Below, piece after piece: positions 9,183 to 43,869 of a DNA stretch of 64,000 nucleotides. The position numbers and the translations under genes were made by a program. Each line of letters opens with the position of its first letter. The first letter of the stretch is position 1. Location of the stretch: positions 62,001-126,000 of the forward strand of contig NC_090604.1 of NCBI RefSeq assembly GCF_000497125.1, read 5' to 3'. Source of the DNA: Spironucleus salmonicida (lineage: Eukaryota). The notes below the pieces were generated by a model that saw only the letters and a program-made list of their open reading frames with translations, made no database searches and was not told the DNA's origin.

Positions 9183-10880
9183 TCACTCCATCTCGCAAAT
9201 CAGCCGATCCACCGCATCGAGGTCCACGTCTCCGTCTACATCGAGCCCATCCACGCCCATCACCAAATCCATCTCGCCCTCCAAAGCCAGCCGCTCGTAC
9301 TCCAGCTAGCTCTCCTCAGCCAGCTGCTAGATCTGAACCACGCTGTTCTGCATGCATTTGTCGTCAATTTCCTTCAGTTTCTCCTCCAATTCGCCTTCGT
9401 TTCCGCCCTAAATTCCACCAGAACTGCTCAAAAAGCGTGCTTTTTCACCACATCCAAGCGCGTCGCTGCTGAGAAGCATTTTTTCGACCCGCTCAAGACG
9501 CTCGGAAACGCAGTCGCGTTCCCTTTCGAGCTCGAAAACACGCGTTTTCAAGCCACTCATCTGCTGGTTCACGATGAAGTCGCTGAGGCCCTAATCGAGG
9601 TCCATGAGCTAGTTTTGGACCTCCATTTGCATGTTTTTGCTGTCGATTTGGCTGTTTTCGATGACGGAAACGCGTTTTAGGAGCGACGTGAAGGCGCCTA
9701 CGACTTCGGTCTGGAATTCCTCTAAAGCGGCGCTCAAATCGTCGATGTTTTGGTCGTTTTTGAACATTTGGATTTGGTTCTGAAACTGTGAAGAAATTGT
9801 ATTAATTTGAGCCAATTGGTCACTTTTCACGTGATTTTCGAGGTCCTGCTGCGTCGATTTTTGCAGTCTCAAAAATGTTACTTTCCAGAGGTCTGCGAGC
9901 TTGTTTGCGCCAAAACCACCGAAAATGTAAATTTCAGATAAATTTGCGCAATATACACTGTCATCAGTATTATCATATAATAATATATTATTGCAATTAA
10001 ATTCTAATTATAATTTTTCTACGGTACCGTAGAATTTTTTGTTATTCTATATAATACAAGAACCAAATGCATGTCTAGCAGGAATTACCGTAGAATCCAT
10101 TTATTTTACGGTAAAGTCGTTCAAGTTTATGACATACATATCATTTAATACTGAATTGTCTCCAGAACCACCAAAAATCACCATTTCATCCGTAGAAATT
10201 ATGTGAGCCATATGTTCAGTTCTGGCAGGTATAATAATGTTATTATTCAAAGAAACGCATTTTGCTGTTTAACTGACTGGATCGACGACCCAGATATCAT
10301 TCAGGCGGCCGACAGCCCCTTTTCCTCCGAAAACAATCAATTTTCCGTCGTTTTCGCACATCGACATCCCGTAACGACCACAAATTCCGTCAATTTCGAG
10401 CCTTTTCCACTCCAATTCAATCAGATCCAATTCATAAAAATCGTCGAAAAGGGCTTAAATTTGCGGATTTTTGCCGCCGAAAACGTAAAGTTTTGACCCG
10501 ATAATCGCAGCTGCGTGGCCGTATCTGCCGGGAGGGCTGTTTTTGGTGTTCAGAAGACCCCAAGAAGTCCCGTTGAAAAGCCAGGTGTCGCTCAGGAATT
10601 TGTTCTGCGAATCACCGCCGAAAAGGACGAATTTAGAGATAGAAAACTGCGTTAATGTGTGACCCCTTCGTACTGATGGCGTCAAATTAGAGCGAGGTTT
10701 TGGTAACCACTGCAGTTACGATGAATTTTAGATGTCGAGCGAGTTCAAGTCTGAGTGGTAGAGCTACGAGAACCCGCCGAACGAAAAGAGTGTCGTATTG
10801 ATATATGCAAGGGCCGTTGAGGAACGTGGGACCGGTGCTGTCTGTGGCATGCGGGTCAGCGAATAGGCTAGCGCGTCCAT
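9183..10880 (-). CDS. Kelch-repeat protein with C-terminal coiled-coil, 565 aa
   Basis: Kelch motifs LFSFGG, RRGHT...FVLFGG...LSDTWLF, GRYGHAAA...LYVFGG, IYIFGG...DLW, then a heptad region; ends GAGTGA. Confidence 0.9.
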
Positions 10881-11645
10881 TAAATTTTAAGATGTGGAAG
10901 GTAAATTTTTAGATATAGTAATATATAATAATATAATTAGTTGACCTAAAAATAATGGAGTGAAATGTGAATAAGATGAATATAAGAAGTAGGAGGAGTA
11001 TGAATGAAAGAAGAATATAAAAAGGTGATAAGTTGAACATTATGACAAATACTGATGGGATTGATAATAAAAATAAAAATTGTAGAGTGTTTGGTAGTGC
11101 ATAAGAAATTTTGTTAGATAAGTGTTGATTTTAATTATTATAGCTCTCATTGTTTTAATTACCGCTAATATGGTTTCCTTGTTTGATTATCAGTCGGAAT
11201 AAATTATAAACTTATGCTATCAAACATTGGATTTGTTAATATTAGTAATTAATTAGTGTTGCTGTAATCATATTGAAAGTTCAAACTATAACATTGGTAG
11301 CTAGTTTATAACAAATATAACGGGATCATAATAAATTTTTATTTTTATATAATAAATAACTATCATAAAAAAAGTATAAAATACAACAGTTTTGTTATCA
11401 TATAGTATTCTAAAATAAATTATGTAATATAGTATTGATAAGTGATAATCATGATTTTTGAAGCTACTACTTTATTACTTGTAATCCTTAATATTAATAG
11501 TTGTGTTTATTATTAATAAATTGAAAGTAACAGTAATAAATAAGTTTAAAACTTTACTAAATCTCTTGTTTAAACAGATGTTATTGTTATGAAAGCTCTA
11601 GTGAAAGTATATGAAACAAATAATCTTATATATTTACAAAATTTC

Positions 11646-12095
11646 TCACTTGACTTTCACAATTTCACCTCGTAACACTTTCTCCCAAAATAAAATCTTT
11701 TTAGCAATAATACTGTTTTCTCTTTAAATTCTTGTAATTTTAGAAAGCGCTTGAACTTCATTAATCTCATTTAAGCGTTCTAGTCGTAGCCTTTAAATAG
11801 ATTTTTTAACTTAAAATAGTGTTTGCTATAAGGTAGTATTATCGAGTTTAAACTATTTTAAATGCTCGTTTAATACTTAGAAATTTTCAGTAATATAATT
11901 TGTAAACTCATCGAAACTGAGGTCGGTATTAACTTCTAAAACGGATAAGGAAACATTATTTAAGTCTAAATTTAAGTCATCAGATAAAAGTGAGCTAGAA
12001 TCAGAACAACAGAGTTAAGATTTAGTTATGTTGTAAAGATTCTACTGTATAACATCTTTGTCTAATAAAAGCTCCTATAATGTTTAATCCGACAT
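11646..12095 (-). CDS. Hypothetical coiled-coil protein, 149 aa (zipper-module family)
   Basis: Open in code 6 from MSDQTLQELLLDKD to KITRIQRENSIIAKKILFWEKVLRGEIVKVK, ends AAGTGA. Confidence 0.75.
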
Positions 12096-12329
12096 TATCT
12101 AAAAATCAAATTATAATCCAGATATAATATGATTTTCATGTTAAAATTATTTTTACTTACAAAAATTAATATAAATTATATATAGAATTATATTACTAAT
12201 TTATTTTATTTTTTGATTAAATATTATGATTATTATTATGATTAAGTTATTTTAATTACCAAAAAAATTAAACTTTAATCAGATTATCTATACAATATTT
12301 AATAATGGAATCGTTTAAAAACCTGTAAA

Positions 12330-12815
12330 ATGTCACTTGCCGAGATGCTTAAAAATTTTGATGATAGATAGTTTACAAAGCCAGATCAACAGTAAGTATA
12401 AAGTAGTAATATTCTAGAAGCACTACTTGGAAATATTGATACTTCTTCAAGTGAAGATATTGTAGAACATGTAAAGTCTTATTCAGTAGAAATAAATTCA
12501 CAATAATATGAGAATTTATCGTTAAAATGTGATGATATTTTATAGTAGCTATCTAATCCCTTAAATGCACCAAAATCAGATATTTCCTCATTATCTTAAA
12601 ATTAAGAAAGCATAGGAATTTTAATAGCGAAAAACTAACAGGAAAATTAAATTCTGTTGCAGTAGGTTAAAATTCTAGGTGCATCTTTGGCTCAAGTTAT
12701 TTAATAGAGAAACTAGAGCCCAATAATGTAGTAAATTGCAATTTTAGAATAGTAAAATTAGTTTTTAACATAGAAAGTTAACTAACTCGAAAGTATCATA
12801 ATGAGACGAAAGTGA
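12330..12815 (+). CDS. Hypothetical coiled-coil protein, 161 aa (zipper-module family)
   Basis: aaaATG MSLAEMLKNFDD...IAILEQQNQFLTQKVNQLESIIMRRK, ends AAGTGA. The C-terminus is clearly similar to gene A at 17085. Confidence 0.8.
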
Positions 12816-13508
12816 AAGTTGCGTTATATAATTATTATATTAAATATACTGTATTTGTAAATTAAACATTTTGTATAAAGAAGTTTCGCGGAACCCATCA
12901 GCATCATCGTCGTCGTCCAGCCCGATCTGCTCCAAACCACCAGGCCGCTGCCGTCAGTCCACCCTTCTGGCGCCAAGCCTATGTTTCACGCCGGTACAGA
13001 AACTCGCGCACTGGCTAGAGCGCTTCACCCAAACGTCCATGGCCTGTCCTGCCAGAATCATAGGTTCTCAGCCCGAGAAGCTGTCCTAAGCTGGCACCAC
13101 GACGCCAGCAGGGGTGTATCTCGATCAACGCCTTTGTATCGCTGTTCAGCGTAACCTCTGATGCAGATATACGTTTCAAGTTACACTGGGGCTGGACCAA
13201 TAGTGACAGAGAGGGTCCATGCGGTTATCCGGTGTAGCTAAATTACAAATTTTAGGATTATTATCCAATACTATATATTCGATATCCAGTTCCTCACTAC
13301 TGAGGTCGTATATTTTTCTTCAATATATTCAATTTATCGAGACGTTGATTTCCAATATTAATTATATTATGGTATGAATTATACTTTCGTAGAATTAAGT
13401 TTCCTTATTAGTCCGTAAGATTTGCGATATTAATACACTTCCCAGTTTCGGTTTTTATATTACTACTAAAATAAGCGGAATCCTATTAACAAAAACAGCT
13501 TCGTAAAA

Positions 13509-13949
13509 ATGGCAGAAAACTTCGAGCTCACAGTCATCAACGATGATCTGAAGATGATATTTGAAGAAGACGACACGGCAGTCGAAGACATTCCATAGGA
13601 GATCCAACAAGCTCTCTCCACCCAAGAGATTGTCCAGCCAGACCGCTTCATGAAGCTGCTCGAATCGCAGAAGAGCGCATACGACCCCCAACTACTGCAG
13701 CACACGACAGACATCAAGAAGATCGCGGCGCAGACCACAGGGCTAGTAGATCTGGTGACCCAGCTTACCGCCAAGGTCCAAAGCTAGCAGGATACCATCG
13801 TGTCTCAGCAAGGCTGCCTGAACGACGCCATCATACAGGTCAACACACTAAATGACATCGTCAACCAGGTGATCGCTCAGAATAACCAGCTTAGTAGCAA
13901 CTTTTCCACGGTTGTGCAGAGGCTGCTGGCAGTCGAGCAGCGGAAGTGA
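13509..13949 (+). CDS. Hypothetical coiled-coil protein gene C, 146 aa (copy 1)
   Basis: aaaATG MAENFELTVINDDLKMIFEEDD...VVQRLLAVEQRK, high GC3, ends AAGTGA. Confidence 0.8.
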
Positions 13950-15744
13950 AACTGTTTGTAATTTTAGCATGACATTCTATCTGAACTTATAATATTATAA
14001 TATCCAAACCAGTCCATTAATTGAATGCCATATTTCGATCGTCTGGTCTCTCGTGCTGAACTGCGGCTAGGATAATTAACCAGAGGCTACAAATTCCGAC
14101 GACAATAAATATATAACAGCGGTACTGCGCATTCATAATTTTATAATCCAGATATCAATTACCAATCTTGAGCACAGCATCCCCGCCGAAATTCTGAACC
14201 TATTGAGGTGACTTTGATTAGAGAACTAACATGACAAATTACTGTATTTCCCACATATTTATGCGATCGGATTTCGGCTCTCTTGAGGCAAACGAGTGCA
14301 GCTTATATACCATTTGCCCATTCGGCACTCAACGTGAAGGAATCTATCTCAGCTGCATGATGCAATCGAGTATGGTAATTAAAATCAATATAGCCGTCTG
14401 AGGAGATTCAGGTCCACCAAGGCAATATCACATTTTTATCCCATCCAACTAATTGTATCTTGCTGTCCCCTGGTGCGACCTATCGTCGTTAGGCCGGATA
14501 TTATATTACAAAGTATGCGAGTCCGTAAACCTTCATCGGTTAGCGCGTCTCATGCTGACCCACATTACCAGGGGTGTCCGGAGTCCATGGTCGATATATT
14601 ATACCCAGCACCCAGCGTTACTACACTGAATATTTCAGGGTACCCCATTTTCTAGATCTGGCAGATTCTCTGGATGTTAGATCTTTCTGGTCAGAACAAT
14701 CTGCGAGTATGCGAGGTAGACAGCAGCCCAGACATCCATGTATTCTCATTTCCTCTACCCAAGAATGCTACCAAGGTATTTTTTCGGGCATGTTCCGTTC
14801 TCAGCATCGGTATGTCATCTTATATGTGATGTACCTTTGATTTTACTGAGCAGAGCTCTCTTCCGACATTAATCTGGAGGTCATGAACGATGCTTTCGGA
14901 CGACAGTTTTATATTGACTCCATTAGATCTCCCTAGAATACTCCCAAGATTATCCTCAAAAAAGGCCTGGCTGACCGTGCGGACTGCTTGACGATGATGA
15001 TGGTGCTCTAGATTACGGAAGCTGGCTGATCTCAGAGAGCTTGTAATGGATAGCGTTAGTATCAATTTTTAGATTATTTCAGCGATTTTGTGTCTAGTTC
15101 TCCAACTCTATGTTGCAAAAGTGAGGTTCTCGAGCTGTATGGTGTGTAGATTAGAATGCAGCTATAGGAAATCAAAAAATCAATCTCACTAGACTGCTAA
15201 AGATTGAGAACCTACGCCCATTCTGCGTGAACTCATCCTTAATATGTATGATACTGTAACAGAAGGTTCTCATAGATCTACTTCTATAGGGTCCCTAAAT
15301 TGGTTGTTGTTCGGATTAGCTTACCAAATGAGCATTTATACAGAAGAATAGTGCCAGATATAATTTCTTCAGATGAAAGTATAGGTGACTCATTACCTTT
15401 TCAGGTGTCTACGCCCGTGGTAGGCGCACTCTCAAGTATCGTTACTGAATATTGCGGATTGACTTTCCGTCGACTGTAGTTCGATATATTGATCGTAGTA
15501 GAGGACATTATGAATCTGTAATACCTTAGCTGCCAAGAAGTGGGCTCGTGCTTTTCAGAAGATGGATTTTTCAGTTTACTACGGACGACGGATTGCCGCA
15601 CATACTCAGCTACCACGATATGGTTCTGCTTGGAGATATATTTTCCAATAGAATAGCGCCCTGGTATATCCTACACTGCTGTGCTACGCGAGTATAAGGC
15701 ACCCACGCGCATGCGCTGGTGAAGGAATGAGAATATCTAATCTA

Positions 15745-16299
15745 TCACTCGAAGCCGAAGCTGCAGAAGAACTGCTCGGAGAACTCGTCGTCCAGCAGAG
15801 TGTCCCGGGGCGTGACCGAGCAGCTTTCAACGCGGGGCGAGACCGACAAGGAGTCGAAGTCTGGCCGCGAGAAGGGCAGCGCAAGCTTGGGGATTACGGG
15901 CATAGCTGAACGGGCGATTGCCTTCGCATTCTGAAAGGCAACACGCAGAACCTGGGTGTCGTACTTGCGGGAAAGGCGCGCGCGGACCATGTCAAGGGAG
16001 GGCTCGAAACCAGCGGCGGCGGCCTCTTGGACCATATGCTTCACGACCGCGGCATCGGAGGCGCTGAGAGGCTCCTATTGACGGCGCTGGAAGGTCTCGC
16101 GGTACCAGTGGTACAGACGGGACTTGGTGACGCCCATGATGTCGGCGGCGTGCTGCCAGGGCACGGTGACGCGGGAAACCTCCTGGGAGAGTAGCGCGTG
16201 GTCGCGCAGAAGCGTAGAGGCGGTGTGGACCGAGAGACTGCGGAGCGCCTGGGCAATGGCGGAGAGGGCGGACGTCTGGTCGAGCGAGGCGCGAGGCAT
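15745..16299 (-). CDS. Putative helix-turn-helix DNA-binding protein gene B, 184 aa (copy 1)
   Basis: Mirror of 17614..18168; contains WQHAADIMGVTKSRLYHWYRETF. Confidence 0.8.
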
Positions 16300-16453
16300 T
16301 GCGGAGTGGTGCACTCAGATGTGGATATATACCATCGGAACCTACGCTTTGCCAGTTTCTGGTTTCGGTAGATTTTCGTGTCAGCGTATCCGGAAGTCTA
16401 GGGAATTATGGCCGGATGCCGATGGATACGCGAGTGGAGTGGGCCGTAGAATC

Positions 16454-16684
16454 TCACTGCCGCCTTGCCACGAGCGCCTCGAGCTGCATGATCTTCTGGT
16501 TCAAGAACTGGTTCTGCTGCTCCAGCACCATGATGCGCTACCGATACGCGTCCCCACCCGGGGCCTGCACCTGCGCGAGCTGTGGTACTTGCTGTAAAAT
16601 TATTTGAGATTTATTGAAATGAGGTGGTCTATAACTTAACAAGTTTATTTAATATATATCTAACAATTATAATAAATTCATCAT
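16454..16684 (-). CDS. Chimeric ORF, 76 aa: spacer-derived N-terminus fused to the gene A C-terminus
   Basis: cccaaaATG MMNLLQLLDIYQINLLSYRPPHFNKSQIILQQVPQ reads in frame into LAQVQAPGGDAYRQRIMVLEQQNQFLNQKIMQLEALVARRQ. Confidence 0.5.
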
Positions 16685-17084
16685 TTTGGGTTAATTTTTG
16701 TTGATAGCATTTTAATAAAATGATAATTGTGATATAAAATTTGTATTATACATTTTAAACTAAGTAATATCAAATATGAATTTAATAGAATTATAATAAT
16801 TTTTAACTGGATAGATAAAATATTGCATAAATTATAATAAGCTAACTGAAAATATAAACTAAGGAATCTGCTGACAATCAACAAGTAAAATCTTAACTAA
16901 TTTTATAATTTAAGTTATCTAAATACTTAATTATTAGTTTTTAGCGACATCAGATATTATTATTAATATTTTTTAATTGTAATAATCTAGTGTTAAACAA
17001 AACCTTAGTATCCTAATATTGTTCCTCTTATAATTTTAAACATAATATAATAAAATCATATACATAAAAATACTATCCGCGAAA

Positions 17085-17459
17085 ATGTCAAGCGGCCTGT
17101 CCCACACCGCAACGGAGCCTAACCACAAGGTTAGCTTCAAGGAGGTCGAGGCACGTATTGCTACTGCTGTGTCCCAGCTGGAGGTACATCTCACTGAAAC
17201 TAGGTCCCTGGACGAGAAGCTGGCGGTGGTTGAGCGCTAGCAACAGAAGTAGTAGGCAGCACTAGCGCAGAGCGCCCAAGTATCCCAAGCACTATCCAAG
17301 CAGGTGGCCCAGGCCCAGACGGCGTTAGCCCATCTCGCGCAGGTGCAGGCCCCGGGTGGGGACGCGTATCGGTAGCGCATCATGGTGCTGGAGCAGCAGA
17401 ACCAGTTCTTGAACCAGAAGATCATGCAGCTCGAGGCGCTCGTGGCAAGGCGGCAGTGA
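17085..17459 (+). CDS. Hypothetical coiled-coil protein gene A, 124 aa (zipper-module family)
   Basis: tccgcgaaaATG MSSGLSHTATEPNHKVSFKEVEARIATAVSQLE...LEQQNQFLNQKIMQLEALVARRQ, ends CAGTGA. Confidence 0.85.
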
Positions 17460-17613
17460 GATTCTACGGCCCACTCCACTCGCGTATCCATCGGCATCCG
17501 GCCATAATTCCCTAGACTTCCGGATACGCTGACACGAAAATCTACCGAAACCAGAAACTGGCAAAGCGTAGGTTCCGATGGTATATATCCACATCTGAGT
17601 GCACCACTCCGCA

Positions 17614-18168
17614 ATGCCTCGCGCCTCGCTCGACCAGACGTCCGCCCTCTCCGCCATTGCCCAGGCGCTCCGCAGTCTCTCGGTCCACACCGCCTCTACG
17701 CTTCTGCGCGACCACGCGCTACTCTCCCAGGAGGTTTCCCGCGTCACCGTGCCCTGGCAGCACGCCGCTGACATCATGGGCGTCACCAAGTCCCGTCTGT
17801 ACCACTGGTACCGCGAGACCTTCCAGCGCCGTCAATAGGAGCCTCTCAGCGCCTCCGATGCCGCGGTCGTGAAGCATATGGTCCAAGAGGCCGCCGCCGC
17901 TGGTTTCGAGCCCTCCCTTGACATGGTCCGCGCGCGCCTTTCCCGCAAGTACGACACCCAGGTTCTGCGTGTTGCCTTTCAGAATGCGAAGGCAATCGCC
18001 CGTTCAGCTATGCCCGTAATCCCCAAGCTTGCGCTGCCCTTCTCGCGGCCAGACTTCGACTCCTTGTCGGTCTCGCCCCGCGTTGAAAGCTGCTCGGTCA
18101 CGCCCCGGGACACTCTGCTGGACGACGAGTTCTCCGAGCAGTTCTTCTGCAGCTTCGGCTTCGAGTGA
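17614..18168 (+). CDS. Putative helix-turn-helix DNA-binding protein gene B, 184 aa (copy 2)
   Basis: ccactccgcaATG. Track fragments 17599..17838 and 17869..18168 join through TAG. HTH-like AADIMGVTKSRLYHWY, acidic/aromatic tail, ends GAGTGA. Confidence 0.8.
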
Positions 18169-19963
18169 TAGATTAGATATTCTCATTCCTTCACCAGCGC
18201 ATGCGCGTGGGTGCCTTATACTCGCGTAGCACAGCAGTGTAGGATATACCAGGGCGCTATTCTATTGGAAAATATATCTCCAAGCAGAACCATATCGTGG
18301 TAGCTGAGTATGTGCGGCAATCCGTCGTCCGTAGTAAACTGAAAAATCCATCTTCTGAAAAGCACGAGCCCACTTCTTGGCAGCTAAGGTATTACAGATT
18401 CATAATGTCCTCTACTACGATCAATATATCGAACTACAGTCGACGGAAAGTCAATCCGCAATATTCAGTAACGATACTTGAGAGTGCGCCTACCACGGGC
18501 GTAGACACCTGAAAAGGTAATGAGTCACCTATACTTTCATCTGAAGAAATTATATCTGGCACTATTCTTCTGTATAAATGCTCATTTGGTAAGCTAATCC
18601 GAACAACAACCAATTTAGGGACCCTATAGAAGTAGATCTATGAGAACCTTCTGTTACAGTATCATACATATTAAGGATGAGTTCACGCAGAATGGGCGTA
18701 GGTTCTCAATCTTTAGCAGTCTAGTGAGATTGATTTTTTGATTTCCTATAGCTGCATTCTAATCTACACACCATACAGCTCGAGAACCTCACTTTTGCAA
18801 CATAGAGTTGGAGAACTAGACACAAAATCGCTGAAATAATCTAAAAATTGATACTAACGCTATCCATTACAAGCTCTCTGAGATCAGCCAGCTTCCGTAA
18901 TCTAGAGCACCATCATCATCGTCAAGCAGTCCGCACGGTCAGCCAGGCCTTTTTTGAGGATAATCTTGGGAGTATTCTAGGGAGATCTAATGGAGTCAAT
19001 ATAAAACTGTCGTCCGAAAGCATCGTTCATGACCTCCAGATTAATGTCGGAAGAGAGCTCTGCTCAGTAAAATCAAAGGTACATCACATATAAGATGACA
19101 TACCGATGCTGAGAACGGAACATGCCCGAAAAAATACCTTGGTAGCATTCTTGGGTAGAGGAAATGAGAATACATGGATGTCTGGGCTGCTGTCTACCTC
19201 GCATACTCGCAGATTGTTCTGACCAGAAAGATCTAACATCCAGAGAATCTGCCAGATCTAGAAAATGGGGTACCCTGAAATATTCAGTGTAGTAACGCTG
19301 GGTGCTGGGTATAATATATCGACCATGGACTCCGGACACCCCTGGTAATGTGGGTCAGCATGAGACGCGCTAACCGATGAAGGTTTACGGACTCGCATAC
19401 TTTGTAATATAATATCCGGCCTAACGACGATAGGTCGCACCAGGGGACAGCAAGATACAATTAGTTGGATGGGATAAAAATGTGATATTGCCTTGGTGGA
19501 CCTGAATCTCCTCAGACGGCTATATTGATTTTAATTACCATACTCGATTGCATCATGCAGCTGAGATAGATTCCTTCACGTTGAGTGCCGAATGGGCAAA
19601 TGGTATATAAGCTGCACTCGTTTGCCTCAAGAGAGCCGAAATCCGATCGCATAAATATGTGGGAAATACAGTAATTTGTCATGTTAGTTCTCTAATCAAA
19701 GTCACCTCAATAGGTTCAGAATTTCGGCGGGGATGCTGTGCTCAAGATTGGTAATTGATATCTGGATTATAAAATTATGAATGCGCAGTACCGCTGTTAT
19801 ATATTTATTGTCGTCGGAATTTGTAGCCTCTGGTTAATTATCCTAGCCGCAGTTCAGCACGAGAGACCAGACGATCGAAATATGGCATTCAATTAATGGA
19901 CTGGTTTGGATATTATAATATTATAAGTTCAGATAGAATGTCATGCTAAAATTACAAACAGTT

Positions 19964-20404
19964 TCACTTCCGCTGCTCGACTGCCAGCAGCCTCTGCACA
20001 ACCGTGGAAAAGTTGCTACTAAGCTGGTTATTCTGAGCGATCACCTGGTTGACGATGTCATTTAGTGTGTTGACCTGTATGATGGCGTCGTTCAGGCAGC
20101 CTTGCTGAGACACGATGGTATCCTGCTAGCTTTGGACCTTGGCGGTAAGCTGGGTCACCAGATCTACTAGCCCTGTGGTCTGCGCCGCGATCTTCTTGAT
20201 GTCTGTCGTGTGCTGCAGTAGTTGGGGGTCGTATGCGCTCTTCTGCGATTCGAGCAGCTTCATGAAGCGGTCTGGCTGGACAATCTCTTGGGTGGAGAGA
20301 GCTTGTTGGATCTCCTATGGAATGTCTTCGACTGCCGTGTCGTCTTCTTCAAATATCATCTTCAGATCATCGTTGATGACTGTGAGCTCGAAGTTTTCTG
20401 CCAT
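19964..20404 (-). CDS. Hypothetical coiled-coil protein gene C (copy 2)
   Basis: Mirror of 13509..13949. Confidence 0.8.
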
Positions 20405-21082
20405 TTTTACGAAGCTGTTTTTGTTAATAGGATTCCGCTTATTTTAGTAGTAATATAAAAACCGAAACTGGGAAGTGTATTAATATCGCAAATCTTACGG
20501 ACTAATAAGGAAACTTAATTCTACGAAAGTATAATTCATACCATAATATAATTAATATTGGAAATCAACGTCTCGATAAATTGAATATATTGAAGAAAAA
20601 TATACGACCTCAGTAGTGAGGAACTGGATATCGAATATATAGTATTGGATAATAATCCTAAAATTTGTAATTTAGCTACACCGGATAACCGCATGGACCC
20701 TCTCTGTCACTATTGGTCCAGCCCCAGTGTAACTTGAAACGTATATCTGCATCAGAGGTTACGCTGAACAGCGATACAAAGGCGTTGATCGAGATACACC
20801 CCTGCTGGCGTCGTGGTGCCAGCTTAGGACAGCTTCTCGGGCTGAGAACCTATGATTCTGGCAGGACAGGCCATGGACGTTTGGGTGAAGCGCTCTAGCC
20901 AGTGCGCGAGTTTCTGTACCGGCGTGAAACATAGGCTTGGCGCCAGAAGGGTGGACTGACGGCAGCGGCCTGGTGGTTTGGAGCAGATCGGGCTGGAAAA
21001 TGACGGTCAAATCTAGTGATGGTTTATAAAAATCTTAAGAATTTTTTATAAAATACAAAATGATAAAAAACCATTTCTTCAC

Positions 21083-21607: not shown

Positions 21608-22185
21608 TTTTATGATATGATGGAATTGGAATGGTGTAAAATGTAAATAATATCTATATAATGTATAATAGTATAGATTATTCAGTAAAATTAAATTTAA
21701 AAAATAACTTAGTATCAAATATAAATCTTACTTTATAAATATAGGAATACTTTTAAAAACGAATGATAACAAGTAAATAAATACAAAACAATCAACTGAT
21801 ATCTTACAAATTCTTGAATAATTTGTTTTATTTAAATGAAAAACATATCAAAAGTAAAACCAATTTAAATAAAATGCATAGTACTTTTTTTAACTTAACT
21901 CATTAAAGTTGAGTGATCCAGTAATAAAGTTTACTTTTAAAGCATATATTCATATTATTATTTATAAACATATATTAATTATATTTTTAAAATATCCTCA
22001 CTACGTCTTACCTACAATAGTTATTATAAATATTAGATATTTATCATATAATATTCTACTTATCTAACTAAACATTTGAAAACTATATAAAAATTTTACG
22101 ATATTGAAATATAATTAGTATATATTATTTTTTCATTAATTTTTATCTATAAAATTATCATTTAATACTTATACTATCCGCGAAA

Positions 22186-22560
22186 ATGTCAAGCGGCCTG
22201 TCCCACACCGCAACGGAGCCTAACCACAAGGTTAGCTTCAAGGAGGTCGAGGCACGTATTGCTACTGCTGTGTCCCAGCTGGAGGTACATCTCACTGAAA
22301 CTAGGTCCCTGGACGAGAAGCTGGCGGTGGTTGAGCGCTAGCAACAGAAGTAGTAGGCAGCACTAGCGCAGAGCGCCCAAGTATCCCAAGCACTATCCAA
22401 GCAGGTGGCCCAGGCCCAGACGGCGTTAGCCCATCTCGCGCAGGTGCAGGCCCCGGGTGGGGACGCGTATCGGTAGCGCATCATGGTGCTGGAGCAGCAG
22501 AACCAGTTCTTGAACCAGAAGATCATGCAGCTCGAGGCGCTCGTGGCAAGGCGGCAGTGA
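22186..22560 (+). CDS. Gene A, second full copy
   Basis: Same sequence as 17085..17459. Confidence 0.85.
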
Positions 22561-22714
22561 GATTCTACGGCCCACTCCACTCGCGTATCCATCGGCATCC
22601 GGCCATAATTCCCTAGACTTCCGGATACGCTGACACGAAAATCTACCGAAACCAGAAACTGGCAAAGCGTAGGTTCCGATGGTATATATCCACATCTGAG
22701 TGCACCACTCCGCA

Positions 22715-23269
22715 ATGCCTCGCGCCTCGCTCGACCAGACGTCCGCCCTCTCCGCCATTGCCCAGGCGCTCCGCAGTCTCTCGGTCCACACCGCCTCTAC
22801 GCTTCTGCGCGACCACGCGCTACTCTCCCAGGAGGTTTCCCGCGTCACCGTGCCCTGGCAGCACGCCGCCGACATCATGGGCGTCACCAAGTCCCGTCTG
22901 TACCACTGGTACCGCGAGACCTTCCAGCGCCGTCAATAGGAGCCTCTCAGCGCCTCCGATGCCGCGGTCGTGAAGCATATGGTCCAAGAGGCCGCCGCCG
23001 CTGGTTTCGAGCCCTCCCTTGACATGGTCCGCGCGCGCCTTTCCCGCAAGTACGACACCCAGGTTCTGCGTGTTGCCTTTCAGAATGCGAAGGCAATCGC
23101 CCGTTCAGCTATGCCCGTAATCCCCAAGCTTGCGCTGCCCTTCTCGCGGCCAGACTTCGACTCCTTGTCGGTCTCGCCCCGCGTTGAAAGCTGCTCGGTC
23201 ACGCCCCGGGACACTCTGCTGGACGACGAGTTCTCCGAGCAGTTCTTCTGCAGCTTCGGCTTCGAGTGA
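22715..23269 (+). CDS. Gene B (HTH-like), copy 3
   Basis: Same protein as 17614..18168. Confidence 0.8.
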
Positions 23270-23401
23270 TAGATTAGATATTCTCATCCCTTAAAAATCT
23301 CTTACGCCCGCACAGTGTAGCATTTCTTATCAATAACACAACTCTAATTCTTGTTTAAATAAAATTATTTATAACAAATTATAAACAAAATATTAAATAC
23401 A

Positions 23402-25031: not shown

Positions 25032-26198
25032 ATGCCGATTACATAATCTAGCTCATCATTAAAAAATGATATCACTGTAGCTAACCATCCTGGATTAAAA
25101 CGTAGTTTATCGAAGATGGGTAGTAATTCATCATTCGGAAATTTTGGAGTAAAACCCTCATTGTCTTTTCAAAAGGAGAAACTATTATAAGTTAAAGATG
25201 AAGAACCAAACTTAATCCCTTTACAAGAGAAGAGTGCATTTTTTATTCCAGATGTAGAAGTATCAAATAGCATTTAATCTACACTTAGCTAAGAAGTTGA
25301 CAATGAAGGATATTTCAACGGTAATAATGTGGTTAGAAGTAGCAAAAACAGTCTATGTGAAAATAATAGTAATATTGCAAGTCCTATTTTTGAGCGTACC
25401 ATAGAACCTCTTGAAATGACTATGGAATCTTAAAATTTTGAAATTCCAGTTATTAAGCTCTCAGTTGATCCCCCACCATCCTTGCCAAGATTTTAACCCA
25501 GACCCTAAGAGTAGCAAATAGTCTAAAGACCAATTAATGATTTTAATTAAGATGTGTAATAATTAGACTAGATTGATAATAGTCAATTTTTATTTAATAA
25601 TGCAAATGAATAGTAAATTGACTTTAATTTAATTGATCAAAAGTTGAATCATGCTTATGAAGATATAAATCCATAAGTTGAGGACGAATAAGAACAATCA
25701 ATCGCCTAAATTACCAATCTTGAATTTACAAATTCATTAGCAGACTTCTAAGATGTGGTTGTCACGGCATTTGCAAAGCTAAAAGGTAAGGTTAATGTTC
25801 ATGATAGAAATTCTTAGATGCTTTTCACCTAATCAAGCTCAGTTTTAGAGGAAATTTTCATTTTATAAAATAATATTTCCGAATTTATTCAAACCCAACG
25901 TCAAAAGAAGCTCAACAGACGGTTAACTTATCTTTAGTTTGAGCATCAGTTTTTGAACGAAAAAATTGCTATAATAGAGTAAGTACTTATCGGAAGTGGG
26001 ATCCTTAAGTCAAATATGATTAATCTTTTATACTAAGAAAATGTAATGTGGTAAATTGATGATTATGAAGATTAGAGTTTAAGTATTGCTCAGGAAGATA
26101 CAGAACATACTTAAAAAGGGGAATTTTTTGTTGATAGTGATATTGAACTTGATGAAGTAGATGACTTAATTAAAAAGATGGCACAAAGGGCTAAATGA
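25032..26198 (+). CDS. Hypothetical protein, 388 aa (KRSLSK...AFFIPD module plus zipper module)
   Basis: C-rich motif before ATG. MPITQSSSS...GLKRSLSK...AFFIPD...LNRRLTYLQFEHQFLNEKIAIIEQVL...DIELDEVDDLIKKM; AGTGA just after the stop. Confidence 0.85.
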
Positions 26199-34874: not shown

Positions 34875-37304
34875 TCACATATGCCCGTACTTGAAGGCCA
34901 GCTTGTCTGCCTCGTCCATGCCCTCATCGCTCTCAGGGTGGAAGTAAATTTTCCTCGGAGCCTCCTCGTAAACGGGAATGATTTCGGGTTTCCGCTCCTC
35001 CCTCGCGCTGTAAATGTCACCGCTTTTGCTCAGCAGGCAGCGCTTCATCTGGATAGTCAACAAATCGCCGTTCAGCAGCACGGATTCCAAGGCCTGTACC
35101 TACTGATTCAGCGCCTAATTCTCGTTTTCGAGCATTTTGAGCCGCTTTTTCTGGATGGTTCCGCTCTTGAACTGGCAGTACTCCTGCGCTACGTTGCGCA
35201 GCTCGCAAAGCCTCTTGAGCACCAGCTGGCCTCTGAAATGCTCCGCAGTAGTACCCTCCTCCAGCACCTTCACGTCATCCATGAAGTGCTAGCAGGCCTC
35301 GGTCGCGGTCTGCTGGAACTCGTTTATTGCGTTCATCGTACCCTGCTTTTTGGCGTTTTTGCGCTTTTTGAGCTTCTGAATCTGCACCTGCGCTTGCTGC
35401 TCGTGGGTGATTTTCATCTACGTGATCTGCTCCTAAATCAGCGACTCAGCGGCTTCCTTCTGCCGCTGCATTTCTTCCTCGTGCATCTGCTACTCCAGCT
35501 CATCCTAAATCCGTTTCTCCTCCCGCTCCTTTTCAATCATATCTTGGATGTGTTTGCTGTCCAAAAGGTCGTCCGGGGAAACGTACGCAGGCGCATCTTT
35601 GTCGTTATTGTCGAATCCTAGGAACGTGTGCTTGACCGCGACCTCCTCGATGGTCTCTTCGACCTTTTTCTCAACGGATTGTTTGAACTGCAGCGCGGTA
35701 CCCTTATTCTTCACGGCCGAGTTCTGGCGCTTGAAGTGACCGTCCTTCACGAAGGAGCTTTTAGCGGTTCCGAGCACCGAGAGCTGCTCGATCGGCTTCA
35801 GCTCAGCGAGGTCACAGATAAGCGGTTTGAAAGCGTTGCGTGGCTATTCCTGGGGCTCCACTGGGCCCTTGGCCTCCTGGGACCCCTCCGTGATGTTGCT
35901 CAGCGAGTGATTTGTGTCCTAAAATGACAATTTTTCGTTGGAATCATTCTGCTGCTCCTGCTCGCCCATCGCGAAGATCTATGAATTGTCCTGGGCGTCG
36001 CTTTCGGTCTAGAACGACAACTTTTCGGTCCCGCCGGCGCTCGAAACCAGTTCAGGCTCCTGCTCTAACTGTGGACTGCTGAAACTGCTCTTTTTAGCAT
36101 TCTAAACGAAAAATTCCGTTATATCATCTTCATTTGTCGTAAAAGGCTCTGGAATTTTACATTGTGAGCCAGAGAGCGATTCTAGCATCGACATTGTCGC
36201 GCTGTCTAGGATTTGGAGGTTCTCGGCAGGAATTGACGTCTCAAGCCCTGGGAGCGTTGCCAGCTCCATCAAAGTTTACGATGGAGGAGGTAGGTCTGGC
36301 TTGGAAAATGCTATTTTGGGGTTAATCGGAGCGCGCTCGTAGTCTTCAGAGTCAGATTGAATCGTCGAAAACGGCTCTGGGACTTTCAGTTCGTCTTTTA
36401 TCAAATCACTGAATGAAAATGCAGGAATCTGCTATTGAAGAAGATTTTCTTCGGAGTCTAGTGCGTGTTGCGGCACCTGCTCCGAGTCTGGGATATAAAA
36501 GGCTTTGAGTTGTAGCTTGACTTTAACCTCCTCCTCTTCGATGTGGAAGCTGCTGGTGGAAGCTGCTTTAAACTTAAGGGAGTTTGACGACCCGTTGTTG
36601 GAGCTGGAGCGGGATAGCTGCTTTCTTGGGGCTTTTTTGCTCTTCGACTGCAGTTGCTTACTGGATCTATTTTCGTAGTTTACATAATCCACCAAAATAT
36701 ACTAGAAAGGATTCTGGATCTCGGGGTCAAATTCTTACGAGTCTTTTAACTGGAGTGGAACCACTGCAGTTTGTTCGAGAGCTTCGGCTTGTTTTTATTC
36801 TGCAACCTGCAAATCGGCGGTCTCTTAGGGGAAATAATCTGTGATATGGAGTTGCTGGTGCTCGTCAGTATCTGGAAGTTGCTAAATATCCTAGCTGATA
36901 TTTGACAATAAGTCTTTGGTTATAATTTCGTGCTCAGTTTTCTCATGCTCATTTTAAAAAGATATATTATCCACCTCTTATTGAACTTCTTCCTATAACA
37001 AATCCATAAAATTAAATGTCGGAGCTTTCTCAGCTTCTTCTTGCTAACTCTCAGACTGTCTTCTCTATTCATCAGTTATATCGCTATCTGGAATATAAAA
37101 GGCTTTTGCTGGTTTACGAACATGAACTTCTTCCTCATCGTCTACAATTACTTTTTCAGCTGCTGGTCTAAACTTAAAGTTTGTAGAATTGTTACTAAAT
37201 GATCCTTGTGCATTTTAAATTTTTGACAGTGACCTCTTAAGGCCCTTTCCACCTTCTCCTTTCATGCCCAACTTGGAAGTACTTCTTTTTGGCAATTAAT
37301 CCAT
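34875..37304 (-). CDS. Hypothetical acidic protein, 809 aa (two KAFYIPDS modules plus zipper module)
   Basis: Track fragments 36432..36695, 35505..35777 and 34875..35090 are in one frame with ATG 37304. Confidence 0.85.
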
Positions 37305-37862: not shown

Positions 37863-38039
37863 TCATTCGGTGTTAATACAAGCAACGGGGCAAGCACCTT
37901 CGCAGCATCCACAGTCGACGCAAGCGGGAGCATCAATGATGGATTTACCATCATCTTTAGCAGTAATGCAGGAGGTGGGGCAAACACCAATGCAAGCCTG
38001 ACAACCAATACAATCGCTATCATTGACAATTCTGGGCAT
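37863..38039 (-). CDS. fdx: 2[4Fe-4S] clostridial-type ferredoxin, 58 aa
   Basis: MPRIVNDSDCIGCQACIGVCPTSCITAKDDGKSIIDAPACVDCGCCEGACPVACINTE has two CxxCxxCxxxCP motifs; ttccgcttcc upstream. Absent from the ORF track. Confidence 0.96.
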   Translation of the reverse strand: MPRIVNDSDCIGCQACIGVCPTSCITAKDDGKSIIDAPACVDCGCCEGACPVACINTE

Positions 38040-38388
38040 ATTTAAGGAAGCGGAAAATATATTCTGCTACTTTTATATAACAAAAATAATATAATTTTAG
38101 ATAGTTTCACCAAGTATTGTAGTTATATAATATAATGAAATATATATCTAATTTATTATTTGAGAACAACATTAATCCAGTATTTTCTAATAATATTTGC
38201 TATAATCTACTTGAGATAATTTATATTATATTATAAATAAATTATATTTGATAATAACCTTAGCAAGTAAAACTGTTTTAAATAACAAATCAAGTTAAGA
38301 AATCCAAAACCTATTTTTCATTTTAAATAATAAAATTAATTAAAGAATATTCATATCTTAGAAACAAATAATAAAAATGGAAATTTAA

Positions 38389-39297
38389 TCAGAGTTCATC
38401 CTTCTTAGCAATAAGAGTTCTTGCGAACTCAATGAATTAGTCGGCTGAGTCAAATTCTTCAGACTTGTGGTCGCCTTCTTTGATAACACCAATGACGCTA
38501 GGGAAGTCAACAACCTTGAAAGTGTTTTCGAGATATTATTTCCATCTGTTAGAATCAACAAAGCAGAAGTTAACCTTGGAAACTAAATCATCACCTTTCA
38601 TAACCAAATCCTTAACCTTAGTTTCGATTTCCTTGATGAGCTTGGCATGTTTGGCCTTATCAGCAGCAAACTTAACCATAACCTTAGAAGAAAGAGTAGC
38701 ATAAGTATCAGGACCGAGCTCGGGGAAGAAGGGGAGCTTGTTGGAAGATATGAACTTGTCAACGGCAGCATAAGAGAAGGTAGAGGTGGTGAAAATTTCA
38801 CCATCACGGAAAGCCTTGACCATTCTGTCACCCTTAATGCAGAAAAGTTTAACCTTACCCTTGAAAGGCTCGAAATATTTCTCGTCTTTTATGGCATCAG
38901 GAGTAGAAACTAAGAAGGCAATGGGGTGCTTCTTGATGTTTTCCATAGCTTCGGCTTCAGGGATATAGGTAAGAGTAGGTAAGAGCATGGATTCAGCCCA
39001 AACTTTGATGGATTCAGCATTACGTTCGCCGTCAAACTCATAAACAGACTCGCCAGAAATGAGTTTGATAGCAGGGAAACCGGAAACACCGAAATCACCA
39101 CAGATAGACTTCTCCTCATCACAGTTAACTTCAGTAACTGGGATAGTGATATCAGTCTCAGAGAGCTTTTCCCACTCGGGAGCAAGAGATTTGCAGTGAC
39201 CGCACCATGGGGCGTAAAACTTAACAAGCTTCAAGTCGTAGTTTTTGATGTTGTCATTAGTGAGGTTGATGACCTCAGCAAGCAGGATGGCAAGCAT
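38389..39297 (-). CDS. PDI: Protein disulfide isomerase, single active domain, 302 aa
   Basis: Hydrophobic N-terminus, FYAPWCGHCK; extends through TAA TAA to ...AKKDEL-stop. Confidence 0.95.
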
Positions 39298-40091
39298 TTA
39301 AAGGAAGGGTAGATTCTGTGGAGTGTAAAAATTCATTTATTTTATTATTTATTCTATATAATAATGATATATTAAACTATTAAACGTTAATTGACGAAGG
39401 GAAGTTTTATAATATAAAATATATTATGAAATAATAATTGAATCGGTTTATTTGTTTTCAAATAATATTTTATAGTCATATTAGTAACGTATAGATACAA
39501 AAAATAATAATATATTATGCTTATATTATACAAATATAATGTTATAAAATTAGATTCTAAAATGTAATATAGATTCCGGCCTATAAAACTATTATTCTAT
39601 ATTGTGCCTATAATAGCGACATTCCATTCTGTTAAAAAAGGTTTTTATCATCTTCTGTTCGTTCAAATATTATTAAATATGTACCACATTAGTTAATTTA
39701 GACTTCCAAAATTCTCTAAGTCGTCGAGCGGGATTCTTTTTATTGTTATACTTTGTTCATCAGTTTTGGGAAATAAATTCTGGAACTATGTTAACAAGGG
39801 AATTTTACTATTTGTCATTGCAAATAATATTATCGACTGAGATTTAGTTCAATTCAGTTTTAAGACTAATTATACTAACAAATCTTTTGCTAACTCATCT
39901 TACGCTTTTTAGCGTTATAATTTACATATATGAAATATTTCTTATTTTAATAGGGAATAATTTTTTTTGATTCATGTTATTTTAAATAAATTCTTTCATA
40001 GTTTAGTGTTATTCTAAATAGAATTTAATTTTTATATGAAAGTTTACCTATAATATTCATCAAAATTTATTAAAAGGAAAAATCAAAATCT

Positions 40092-41528
40092 TCACTTTTA
40101 TTAAACTTCATAAAAATAACTACCTTCTTAAATCACGATACCATCAATACACTATATAAGTTTTTAAGGGTCTGAAACTCTTAATAATATCTCCTCCTTG
40201 TCCGAATTTAAAGATTGCATCATTTTAGCTCTTAGTTTATAAATGAGCTTATTCTCACACTAAATTTTATACTTTTAGTTAATTCGAATTTATAGTAATT
40301 CATTATCTAAATAAATAGAATCTTTTTCAATAAGTTCAATTTTTTCATTTATTTTAATGTACAGATTGGCATTAGAACATAAAATATTAATTTTTTACTA
40401 CTCTGGAATTTCGTCTCTGTATTGAATTTCTGAAATATCTTCAAAGTAGTTCAACTCCTAATCATTAATAACCGCGGAATGAGAGGTTGGTATTTAGTTA
40501 AATATAAGCTTACTAGGTTGCAGTAATTCTTTTTCAATAAATAATGGACTGTTTGAAACCTAGTCTTCTTCTTATTAATGTTGCAGATATAATTTTAAAG
40601 AAGGTGATTTTTATTATAATTCGGTGAATTTATTTATGACTTCTTAATTATGTTTTAGTTACTCATTGACTTAACTATCAAGTAAGTTTAGTGATTTTGG
40701 TGTCGGTGATCTAGGTGGGTTTTTAACCTAAAACACCTCCTCCTAATCAGAATCTGTTTTATTTTAAATATCACTGACTTATTCTTCAATTATACTTCGT
40801 ATAACGGAATTTGATTTTAAAACATGATCCTATTTATGTTCCAAACTAACATTTTAGTGACCATCATATATTTCATCTTAGGATAACTAAATTGAGTATT
40901 AGGCAGACCCCTGATGTTATATATGGCTTACTAAGGTATTATGGTTAGACTTATCATGTTATATTTCTTATAACTAATTAGAGATTTCAGTGTTTGGTTT
41001 CGAGTTTTCTTCAAAAATAGCAAAATCTTCCTCTAGCTATTAAAGATGACCGCTCATTCCACTTTTTGTTACCTATGCATCTGATATGTTTGTATTCTCT
41101 ATAATTAAATCTTCTTATAACAGATGAGCAGTATTTTATTCTATACTTATAGGTTCTTGCTACTATTGTTCACATTCTATAACAGAACCATCTTTATGAC
41201 TTTAGATTTCTTATTAAGAGGAGATACTACTTTCCATGGTTAAAATTTAATCTTCTTTTGAATTTTCACATTCTCTTACATATTACTCATTAATAATATT
41301 CTCGCCTTAATCCAAAGCTACAACTTCTATATCTTTGCTTTAACTTCCAATATCTCCTAAAAACTCAGTTTAGCTAGAAATTGTCGGTGCTTAAAAATCA
41401 TTTAAATCAATTTCCTCTACACATTTTACTTCTTCTGTGGAGTTAATAGAATATTCAAAGAGATCAGACTATATCGACATAGAGGGAGATGGAATCTGCT
41501 ATTTTGCTGCGCAGCAAAGTTTAAACAT
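40092..41528 (-). CDS. Hypothetical acidic, Q/E/S-rich protein, 478 aa
   Basis: ccaaaaATG MFKLCCAAKQQIPSPSM... with in-frame end ...SYFYEVQQK, AAGTGA. Confidence 0.75.
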
Positions 41529-41912
41529 TTTTGGAAATTTGTCTATTTATTTTTTATATATAATATTGGTATAATGAGGACTTTGTAAAAATAATATATA
41601 TCATATAATATATAAATAATAATATAGTAACTTATTTTAAACAGTCAGCTCTTAAAAAATAAATAAATAAAAAAGAATTTATATTGTGTTAATGTCAAAC
41701 AACTATAAGGGATTTAAATAATTAAGGTTAAAGGAAGATACAGCTAAGAAGATATCATTGTCTCTTAACATTTATAATATTTAAATTTATATTGCAATTT
41801 ATTCCACTCTTAAAAACGTAATATATTCATATTATGATATAAAATAATAAGTTTATTTGATAAAACTATTATATAGCTTAATAAATATATATTTATTAGA
41901 TACGATATTATT

Positions 41913-41925
41913 ACTTTTCCGCAAA
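41913..41925 (+). promoter_or_regulatory. Example of the C-rich TCC(G/A)C motif immediately upstream of start codons
   Basis: ttttccgcaaaATG. Similar motifs precede ATGs at 3360, 6400, 10880, 17085, 17614, 27433, 29053, 38039, 39297, 44486, 50835 and 53944. Confidence 0.7.
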
Positions 41926-42309
41926 ATGGCATTTAAGTAACTTACCAGTCTTAACTTGCTTTAGGGAAAAGTTGATACAACTAAACCAATATTATTAATG
42001 TATTTCTCTACTTACTGCCCTCTTTCTCGTAAAATAGTTGATAATGTCATCGCCAAAGATATTCCTAACTGTGAAAAAGTATTCATTGCTTGTGAAACTC
42101 CTAAATAGGTTGCCTAATATATTTAAAAATACCCCAAAGAAGCATTTGCAGTTGATCAAGACGATCTTTTCAGATCCTTCTTGTATAACAATGTCCCTAA
42201 ATTAGCCACTAATTATTATATCTTCCTCTTAAAGGACGGAAATGTTCTCTGGAAGGGTGTCCCAGAAAGTGGTGAATTCAATCATAGCATGTAAAAGATT
42301 CTTGGCTGA
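41926..42309 (+). CDS. Thioredoxin-fold (TlpA/redoxin-like) protein with CXXS site, 127 aa
   Basis: ttccgcaaaATG; KPILLMYFSTYCPLS, FAVDQD and IFLLKDGNVLWKG match the redoxin pattern. Confidence 0.8.
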
Positions 42310-43380
42310 TTTTATTTATCACCTTTATAATACTTAGTAGTCATATTTATTACTTATTTTCAGTGGTTTTTACTTATTAAATATATCGTCTACTATATCA
42401 GTATTGTTAACGAAGAATATAGATAAAAAATAAAAATGAAGTCATTTTACCCATAGTTTCACTATGTTTTACGCACAATCTATTTATGTAATTTCATAGT
42501 ACATTATTTTAAATATTTAAATTCAGCGTTATATAACAACAATATTAGTAATATGGATACTGAACAGTATAACTAGCCTCTAATAAATTAAATTTTAGAC
42601 CTAATAAAAGCAGATGAATATTTATAAGATCATAAAGCTTTGAATTTTAATTTTTAAAGCACCAATAATTATAAAACATATAACTTCATCTTAATAAATA
42701 TAATTTAATATAATGAATTATGGGAAATATTCAAATATGATCAATTTCTGAATAACTTCCATTAACTATGATACCAGTATTCAGAATTTGAGAGCATATT
42801 ATAGGTGAGCTAATTGGATCATTTTTATCTAAACTAGATAGCATATTGCCATAAGGATCAAGTAACAGATAATCATTTTTTCTTAAACAAATTTTGAACA
42901 TTTTTGGCAATGAATACATTGCATATAATATTATAATAAAAACATTCTATCGTTGTAATAACTTGGTTAATTCACTATTTAAAAACATAAATTTTAGAAA
43001 ATCAATTGAGAATATACCAAAGATAAAATATAAATTATATATAAGAAAAAACAGAATTAATAAGTTTAAACCCAAATATAATTCTATAATGGTTAAACTA
43101 TCTACTGTAGTTAATAAAATATTAATTATTATCCAATATTCTATAATATAAATTTGAATAAAAATCAATAGGTAAAATAAAGTAATGATACATATGTTAA
43201 TGTCAAATATTTTAAAATATCGGTTTTCTAAATTTAATTATATTTATATTAACAATACAATGGCCAAATATCAGTATTGAAAACAGATATATATTTACTA
43301 CAATTCGATGTTATACAAATAAATACCTAAACCAGTAAATTTAGAAAATGCAGAAAACCTAATCTACTTTTTTACTAGAC

Positions 43381-43869
43381 ATGAGCCCTGACGCCAGAAA
43401 ATCTGGTAATTCAAAAATGTTCGCATTTAACACATTAAATCATACTAGTAGTTCGCAAAAGTTATTTCTAGCAGTGGATGAAATCAAAGAGTAAAGTGTT
43501 TCACCCGTCTAGTCGTATAGCGATATATTATCTTTCTTTGATCAAATAGAGCCAGATATTGATCCTATAGATGTTAAGAAAAACGAAATAGAATAAAAAT
43601 TAACTAATATTAAAAATATGTTAACTAATCAATAAATTGGACAAATAGAAATTCTACAGGAATAATTAGATACCTAGTAACAATAAATTAATGCAAATTA
43701 GTAAAACTTATTATAAATTAAGAATTAAATGGTTATGATTACAAATAACATAAATTAGTTGCTTTAAGATCAGTAGATGATGAAATTGACAGTATTGGAC
43801 CAAAAAAATATGATCTTGAATTAAAAACTAACGTAGATGTAATCTACCGTGATGTAAGGAAGACAGTGA
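43381..43869 (+). CDS. Hypothetical coiled-coil protein, 162 aa (zipper-module family)
   Basis: MSPDARKSGNSK...KLTVLDQKNMILNQKLTQMQSTVMQGRQ, ends CAGTGA. Confidence 0.75.

Follow-up and report, generated by a model that had tools for sequence, protein, structure and literature searches.

The stretch of DNA analysed here, which we call the window, comprises 64,000 nucleotides from Spironucleus salmonicida (positions 62,001 to 126,000 of contig NC_090604.1). A 35-kb region within it, at window positions 9183 to 43869, hosts a set of genes that an earlier reading of the sequence alone had grouped together on account of a short, zipper-like C-terminal module. We find that some of these genes belong to a real, small, species-restricted orphan family, which consists of four long-domain proteins and two kinds of probable truncated offshoots. 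For all translations TAA and TAG were read as glutamine (NCBI table 6, code 6), with TGA as the sole stop. The region then contains 92 overlapping open reading frames (ORFs) of at least 100 amino acids, and with TGA as the only stop an open frame alone is a weak sign of a gene. The exact proteins of six genes are present in public protein collections (565, 149, 161, 124, 388 and 809 amino acids), and these exact matches place the start codons of the real gene models at the position numbers given by the sequence-only reading, after which several of the proteins are named below. The seven 23-residue 'zipper' peptides and the four 'upstream helix' peptides that it had listed are likewise all present in the code-6 translations.

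The genes for the long-domain proteins in the window are the following:

9186 to 10880, minus strand: Kelch-propeller protein (P0001), 565 amino acids, with a long C-terminal helical domain at 9186-9764 and its zipper at 9474-9539
25032 to 26195, plus strand: the 25032 protein (P0005), 388 amino acids, with a Ser-rich N-terminus that includes an AFFIPD stretch, a long C-terminal domain at 25707-26195 and its zipper at 25923-25988
34878 to 37304, minus strand: the 37304 protein (P0006), 809 amino acids, an expanded paralogue of P0005, with a long C-terminal domain at 34878-35363 and its zipper at 35076-35141

The evidence that the C-terminal domains of these proteins are related comes from leave-one-out profile searches. 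As a background set we used all 760 stop-to-stop code-6 fragments of at least 50 amino acids in the window (96,349 residues). In this set a profile built from any two of the domains finds the third: the domain of the Kelch protein with an expectation value (E) of 1.3e-9 (33.4 bits), the 25032 domain with E 9.8e-11 (37.4 bits) and the 37304 domain with E 1.5e-9 (33.7 bits). These scores show real homology of the three long domains, beyond what chance would give. A word-based protein search with the C-terminal region of the Kelch protein returned the window's own proteins only.

When the three-member profile was run with HMMER against an exhaustive set of 1,835,955,588 representative proteins, five proteins scored at E ≤0.001: the three queries, P0007 and P0008. 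P0008 is a hypothetical protein of 161 amino acids, also from Spironucleus salmonicida, that matches profile positions 5-112 with E 5.4e-6 and 42.7 bits. It lies on a 1.8-Mb contig, while the window proteins lie on a 623-kb contig. P0008 is nearly all domain, and it carries all three conserved patches described below. As a result, three of the four long-domain proteins known among 1.84 billion proteins are clustered within 28 kb, which bears out the earlier description of the family as locally expanded. The other newcomer, P0007, is a Trypanosoma protein of 4333 amino acids with 23 stretches in the HMMER search. We rejected it as a relative because it is a repeat artefact, with 24 domains that each score at most 2.4 bits. 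P0007 is nevertheless the best outsider in the whole collection, with a score that is built only by summing repeats.

Three architectures are found ahead of the domain: a Kelch propeller, a Ser-rich region with an AF[FY]IPD stretch, and nearly nothing (P0008). Six Pfam Kelch families match the propeller, the best with E 5.9e-59. The Ser-rich architecture is shared by two proteins. In a BLASTP comparison P0005 and P0006 match each other in the C-terminal domain (E 5e-7) and also in N-terminal residues 21-75, which run from GLKRSLSK to AF[FY]IPD (E 5e-4). From these alignments the 25032 and 37304 proteins are paralogous over their whole length, not shuffled. The proposal that the module had been shuffled onto different N-termini holds for the three architectures, and it does not hold for this pair, whose N-termini are shared. 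The common N-terminal stretch is encoded at 25092-25256 (plus strand) and at 37080-37244 (minus strand). The 37304 protein also has a second copy, AFYIPD, followed by several short repeats that resemble [KS]-L-S-F-Q.

The conserved unit of the long members comprises about 160 residues. The short C-terminal zipper module of the sequence-only reading has to be given up in favour of this larger domain, as the long proteins continue for a further 43-96 residues after the zipper, 66-96 in those of the window, and end in an acidic D..LD..D.L stretch. The order of elements is one helix of about 95 residues, a variable segment and a short, acidic, amphipathic end helix (D-x-x-L-D-E-x-D-x-L). The first conserved patch, [LI]x[DE]FQxxVVxAF, lies in the N-terminal part of the long helix, and the distance from its start to the start of the zipper is exactly 62 residues in all four long members. 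All three features, i.e. the [LI]x[DE]FQ patch, the zipper at 62 and the acidic end helix, are present in each of the four. The zipper itself consists of 3.5 heptads with an a/d spacing of 3-4-3-4-3-4. Its central 'a' residue is polar in 8/8 sequences, namely Asn in six of them, His in 25032 and Arg in the Kelch protein. The domain alignment does not contain any conserved stretch of 7-10 columns.

AlphaFold2 models P0008 as one continuous helix over residues 26-120, with a predicted local distance difference test score (pLDDT) of about 86-94, and the 37304 domain as a single helix over residues 2-98 (pLDDT 92-96). Beyond the long helix the models continue with short helices and a segment of low confidence, and they close with a terminal helix.

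We find support for the earlier impression that this is not a named family, as no Pfam or PDB family matches the long domain. For the four long-domain members 14 Pfam families are listed at E ≤1, each from just one of the four and all below their cut-offs; the best, DUF4618, reaches 19.2 bits against a cut-off of 34.9. Pfam likewise has no family for the 37304 protein, the gene A-fusion protein or the 43348 protein (the latter two are described below). A sequence search of the PDB (177,635 sequences, a set 230 times that of the window) gave no significant match. The best were the tag region of a nitrile hydratase (20.9-25.1 bits) and designed coiled coils (17-19 bits), and the matches cover at most about 40 of the 165-177 profile positions. 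In structure searches Foldseek returned 0 PDB matches at E ≤0.001, and VIA-align returned 428 chains at Z ≥5 and none at Z ≥8, all of them long coiled-coil helices tied at Z 6-7. In the ESM Atlas the best feature score for the 25032 domain was 0.82, to unnamed clusters with a structural template modelling (TM) score of at most 0.32, which is not informative. Finally, the titles returned by literature searches on Spironucleus salmonicida contained nothing on these proteins.

Between the long-domain genes lie short genes whose proteins carry a similar zipper:

12330 to 12812, plus strand: the 12330 protein (P0004), 161 amino acids, AT-rich, a relative of gene A, with its zipper at 12735-12800 and its end 4 residues later
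17085 to 17456, plus strand: gene A copy 1 (P0009), a short GC-rich protein of 124 amino acids (GC 0.60), with its zipper at 17379-17444 and its end 4 residues later
22186 to 22557, plus strand: gene A copy 2, an identical protein of 124 amino acids, with its zipper at 22480-22545
16457 to 16587, minus strand: the last 44 codons of gene A, mirrored in the left arm of a palindrome, with the zipper at 16469-16534

Gene A and 12330 are, by profile and pairwise comparison, clear relatives of each other. Within the background set gene A is recovered by a profile of 12330 and the ORF at 43348 with E 3.4e-8, and 12330, when left out, is recovered by the short-group profile with E 6.2e-8; within the window set the two also align by BLASTP at E 3e-7 to 3e-8. 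Word-based searches with gene A, and with the alignment of gene A and 12330, returned the window's own proteins only. The composition of the members differs widely, with a GC of 0.60 for gene A, 0.475 for 37304, 0.45 for the Kelch gene, 0.30 for 25032 and 0.28 for both 12330 and 12095. Gene A is Ala/Gln-rich and 12330 is Asn/Ile/Gln-rich, a compositional difference that tracks the difference in GC.

The link between these short proteins and the long domain is more delicate. A profile of all four long domains scores the two gene A copies at 19.3 and 19.2 bits (E 2.9e-5 for the former) over profile positions 27-96, 12330 at 17.3 bits (E 1.2e-4) and the mirrored gene A fragment at 15.6 bits, while the best unrelated ORF among the 760 fragments reaches 9.0 bits (E 0.043). 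As a control, each sequence was shuffled 200 times and scored with the long-domain profile. Gene A itself scored 18.7 bits, while the best of its shuffles had 9.0, and 12330 scored 18.7 bits, with 6.3 for its best shuffle; in both cases 0/200 shuffles reached the real score. An hhalign comparison of the long group with gene A plus 12330 gave a probability of 69% (P 4.4e-5) over 52 columns. The part of the domain that the two short proteins match is helix 2 plus the zipper, and they have neither the FQ patch nor the acidic tail. On these similarities gene A and 12330 would be partial members of the long-domain family at most.

Gene A owes its several copies to the following element:

12908 to 21005: a perfect GC-rich palindrome with arms at 12908-16587 and 17326-21005 and a spacer of 738 nucleotides

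The palindrome arms are 3680 nucleotides each and 100% complementary in the assembly, with a GC of 0.48 against 0.24-0.28 in the flanks. The perfect repeat may conceivably be a product of the assembly. Gene A spans the border between the spacer and the right arm, and because of its position at the border of this inverted repeat it exists as two full copies plus a mirrored 3′ fragment. The second full copy lies within a direct repeat (17070-18186 and 22171-23287, 1.1 kb with 1 mismatch, GC 0.60). Upstream of the mirrored gene A end there is a different, AT-rich reading frame. At 16457-16828 (minus strand) the end of gene A, zipper included, thus runs into an unrelated AT-rich open frame, and this may be a chimeric gene; the ORF that contains the mirrored fragment is absent from the protein collection with the three starts that we tried.

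The same repeats host other small ORFs. Just downstream of gene A there is a GC-rich ORF of 184 amino acids (P0010) at 15745-16299 (minus strand), 17614-18168 (plus strand) and 22715-23269 (plus strand), in identical or near-identical copies. Public collections contain an annotated entry for this protein, and no Pfam family matches it. A Gln-rich helical protein of 146 amino acids (P0011), encoded at 13509-13946 (plus strand) with a mirror in 19964-20932 (minus strand), ends in ...LLAVEQRK and superficially resembles the short members, but it is matched by no family profile. Elsewhere the window encodes, under code 6, a dynein heavy chain, sugar and amino-acid transporters, a thioredoxin-domain protein, an ankyrin protein and a Cys-rich VSP-like protein.

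The sequence-only reading counted seven genes. Five of these are supported (Kelch, 25032, 37304, gene A and 12330), and the two that remain are these:

11649 to 12095, minus strand: the 12095 protein (P0003), 149 amino acids, a possible divergent truncated member with an FDEFT helix motif and its zipper at 11673-11738
43348 to 43866, plus strand: the ORF listed earlier as 43381, rejected as a member

Membership of the 12095 protein is borderline on the scores at hand. With the four-member profile it reaches 9.8 bits (E 0.024), next to 9.0 bits (E 0.043) for the best unrelated ORF, and hhalign against the long group gives a probability of 3.9% (P 0.011). Its domain score of 11.1 bits in the shuffle control is nonetheless above the maximum of 5.7, with 0/200 shuffles as good, and the distance from its FDEFT patch to its zipper is 59 residues, against 62 in the four sure members. 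Residues 75-107 of this protein (11775-11873, minus strand) match Pfam INO80F at 23.3 bits, under the cut-off of 25.1, which is probably a coiled-coil chance match. The ORF at 43348-43866 is indistinguishable from noise. It scores 1.5 bits with the long-domain profile, 18/200 shuffles are as good, and hhalign against the long group gives a probability of 0.3% (P 0.2). It is not among the matches listed in the short-group leave-one-out search or in the four-member profile search of the 760 fragments, and it is absent from the protein collection with starts at 43348, 43381, 43417 and 43618.

With moderate confidence, we read the locus as home to a lineage-restricted, unnamed family of Spironucleus-type diplomonads, characterized by a C-terminal helical domain of about 160 residues that would serve as a dimerising rod, and including short truncated offshoots. 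The domain appears to have spread by local duplication, with three of its genes packed into 28 kb and a fourth on another contig. In all likelihood gene A and 12330 are truncated offshoots, in which only the latter half of the long helix remains and the protein ends 4 residues after the zipper. In the zipper of GCN4 the polar 'a' residue Asn16 sets the register of a parallel dimer. By analogy, the long helix of the new family would assemble into a coiled-coil rod. This would most likely be a parallel dimer, and the polar 'a' residue may set its register. The rod could dimerise or tether the N-terminal binding part of each protein, and the small, zipper-only proteins could be partners of the long ones or their competitors.

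Several observations weigh against this reading. The profile search of representative proteins found no relatives outside one species, so conservation cannot be used to support a function. The link from the long to the short proteins consists of about 52-70 columns of coiled-coil sequence, and its scores do not exceed those of the three best unrelated PDB chains; the short and long zippers may therefore be convergent. The pTM (predicted TM score) of the AlphaFold2 models is 0.33-0.35, with alignments of only 4 sequences each, although such a pTM is as expected for a rod. For about 55 residues the heptads stay in one phase, which then shifts by two just ahead of the zipper, at the site of Pro-Gly-Gly in gene A and of Ser-Pro in 12330, and so the rod may be interrupted at this point. 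In addition, the zipper does not appear to be the conserved core of the family, as the Kelch protein is not recognised from the zipper alone. The patterns for the zipper and for the patch spacing were written after seeing the members, and their counts are therefore not independent evidence. This applies to the strict zipper pattern in particular: it has 7 matches in the window, only in the listed genes, against 0.02 expected, and it was written from those very sequences.

The strongest competitor, which we consider unlikely but worth taking seriously, is that there are two unrelated small families: the four long-domain proteins would be one, and gene A and 12330 would be a separate, Gln-rich coiled-coil pair whose zipper arose by convergence in a proteome rich in Q, N, K, L and I. 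The cross-group scores of only 17-19 bits over 52-70 columns speak for this, and the short proteins have no FQ patch, post-zipper segment or acidic tail. With the same profile, designed and natural coiled coils of the PDB score as high as 17-21 bits; just three sequences are at 17.4 bits or above (20.9, 18.6 and 17.4), and the GCN4 or CoilSer peptides are at 12-13 bits. A further point in its favour is the small Gln-rich helical protein of the palindrome at 13509-13946, which is matched by no profile. When scored alongside unrelated coiled coils, the long members are clearly separated, while the outsiders do nearly as well as gene A and 12330 and fully as well as 43381. The size of the PDB set matters here. 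Since it is 230 times that of the window, only about 0.01 such matches would be expected in the window, and yet two independent loci are seen; the link is therefore significant for the window, though not overwhelming. Both gene A and 12330 lie between long-domain genes, and 0/200 shuffles reach their scores. A zipper-only test (40 columns, leave-one-out profiles) also recovers gene A (4e-9), 12330 (4e-7) and 37304 (1e-6) together, with 25032 marginal (0.026).

That same zipper-only test bears on the original proposal, that all seven genes share one oligomerisation module and could combine in a pairing network akin to that of bZIP zippers, though without a basic region. All seven peptides do have the a/d heptads and a polar residue at the central 'a', the four short ORFs end 4-8 residues past the zipper and the genes are clustered within 35 kb. 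However, the zipper by itself does not recover Kelch, 12095 or 43381 among the 760 fragments, 12095 is borderline by the long-domain profile and by hhalign, and 43381 scores as noise and is absent from the protein collection with four starts tried. The pattern was also defined from the same sequences, and a loose heptad pattern finds 16 matches in the window, where shuffled sequences would give 11.3. We regard a seven-gene module as improbable. At the other extreme, the similarities could be a compositional or coiled-coil artefact of an AT-rich genome that is read with only TGA as a stop, with no family at all. Most of the 92 code-6 ORFs are indeed overlapping and spurious, and Gln/Asn/Lys-rich helices are common. 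For the long group this is already contradicted by leave-one-out values of E 1e-9 to 1e-10, by a fourth member, carrying the same three patches, that a blind search of 1.84 billion proteins turned up, by the invariant patch spacing and by the presence of six genes in public protein collections. We give an artefact hardly any credence.

A more ambitious extension of the single family is also conceivable. The Kelch protein as a substrate or cargo receptor, the two Ser-rich scaffolds and the domain-only protein might hetero-dimerise via the shared rod, in a private pairing code in which the polar core residue (Asn, His or Arg) decides on the partner. Gene A and 12330 would then act as dosage-sensitive competitors, and the GC-rich, self-correcting palindrome would preserve gene A in both copy number and sequence. 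We offer this as a speculation that is quite improbable as a whole.

If a single family with truncated offshoots is correct, the biology of diplomonads gains a named, testable domain for six 'hypothetical proteins'. The locus would also be a small example of how a coiled-coil handle can spread by local duplication onto different heads, and of a palindrome border as the creator of a new gene end. No long-standing open question is touched by these results, and orphan coiled-coil families are common in protist genomes.

A number of known systems resemble parts of this family. The zippers are like those of bZIP proteins and GCN4 in having 3.5 heptads with Leu, Ile or Val at the a and d positions and a polar central 'a' residue, which is Asn in 6/8 sequences here, and the GCN4 peptide is among the weak PDB matches to the zipper columns (12.4 bits, E 0.87). 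The earlier statement that a basic region is lacking is correct: nothing of the bZIP kind lies ahead of the zippers, where the residues are Gln/Ser/Gly-rich or mixed. The Pfam bZIP profiles remain below their cut-offs, with none at E ≤0.1 among 8 proteins, and bZIP_2 in one of the four long members at E 0.044, far below cut-off. A further difference is that the zipper ends a helix of about 95 residues here, rather than being a free-standing zipper of about 30 residues, and that the long members continue to an acidic end helix.

The predicted long helix also superposes on two-stranded rods, e.g. myosin rod fragments, a lamin coil, cortexillin I, tropomyosin and the KKT4 coiled coil, at Z 6.3-7.2 over about 95-109 residues. 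At 3-16% identity these matches are all tied, in a Z range that is typical of any long helix, and they give no sign of common descent. In terms of architecture a parallel may be Tea1 of fission yeast, which is a Kelch propeller with a C-terminal coiled coil. The protein at 9186-10880 would by analogy be of this type, with an N-terminal Kelch propeller and then a helical rod, but no search found a sequence relation of the rod, and the rod of the new family also occurs without a propeller. For the short proteins a parallel is provided by the Id-type helix-loop-helix (HLH) proteins, which are small, helix-only inhibitors of dimeric factors. There is no homology with these, and the comparison is one of analogy only. 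Gene A and 12330 keep the pairing stretch without the rest of the domain or any other domain, which is the layout that would be expected of a competitor or modulator.

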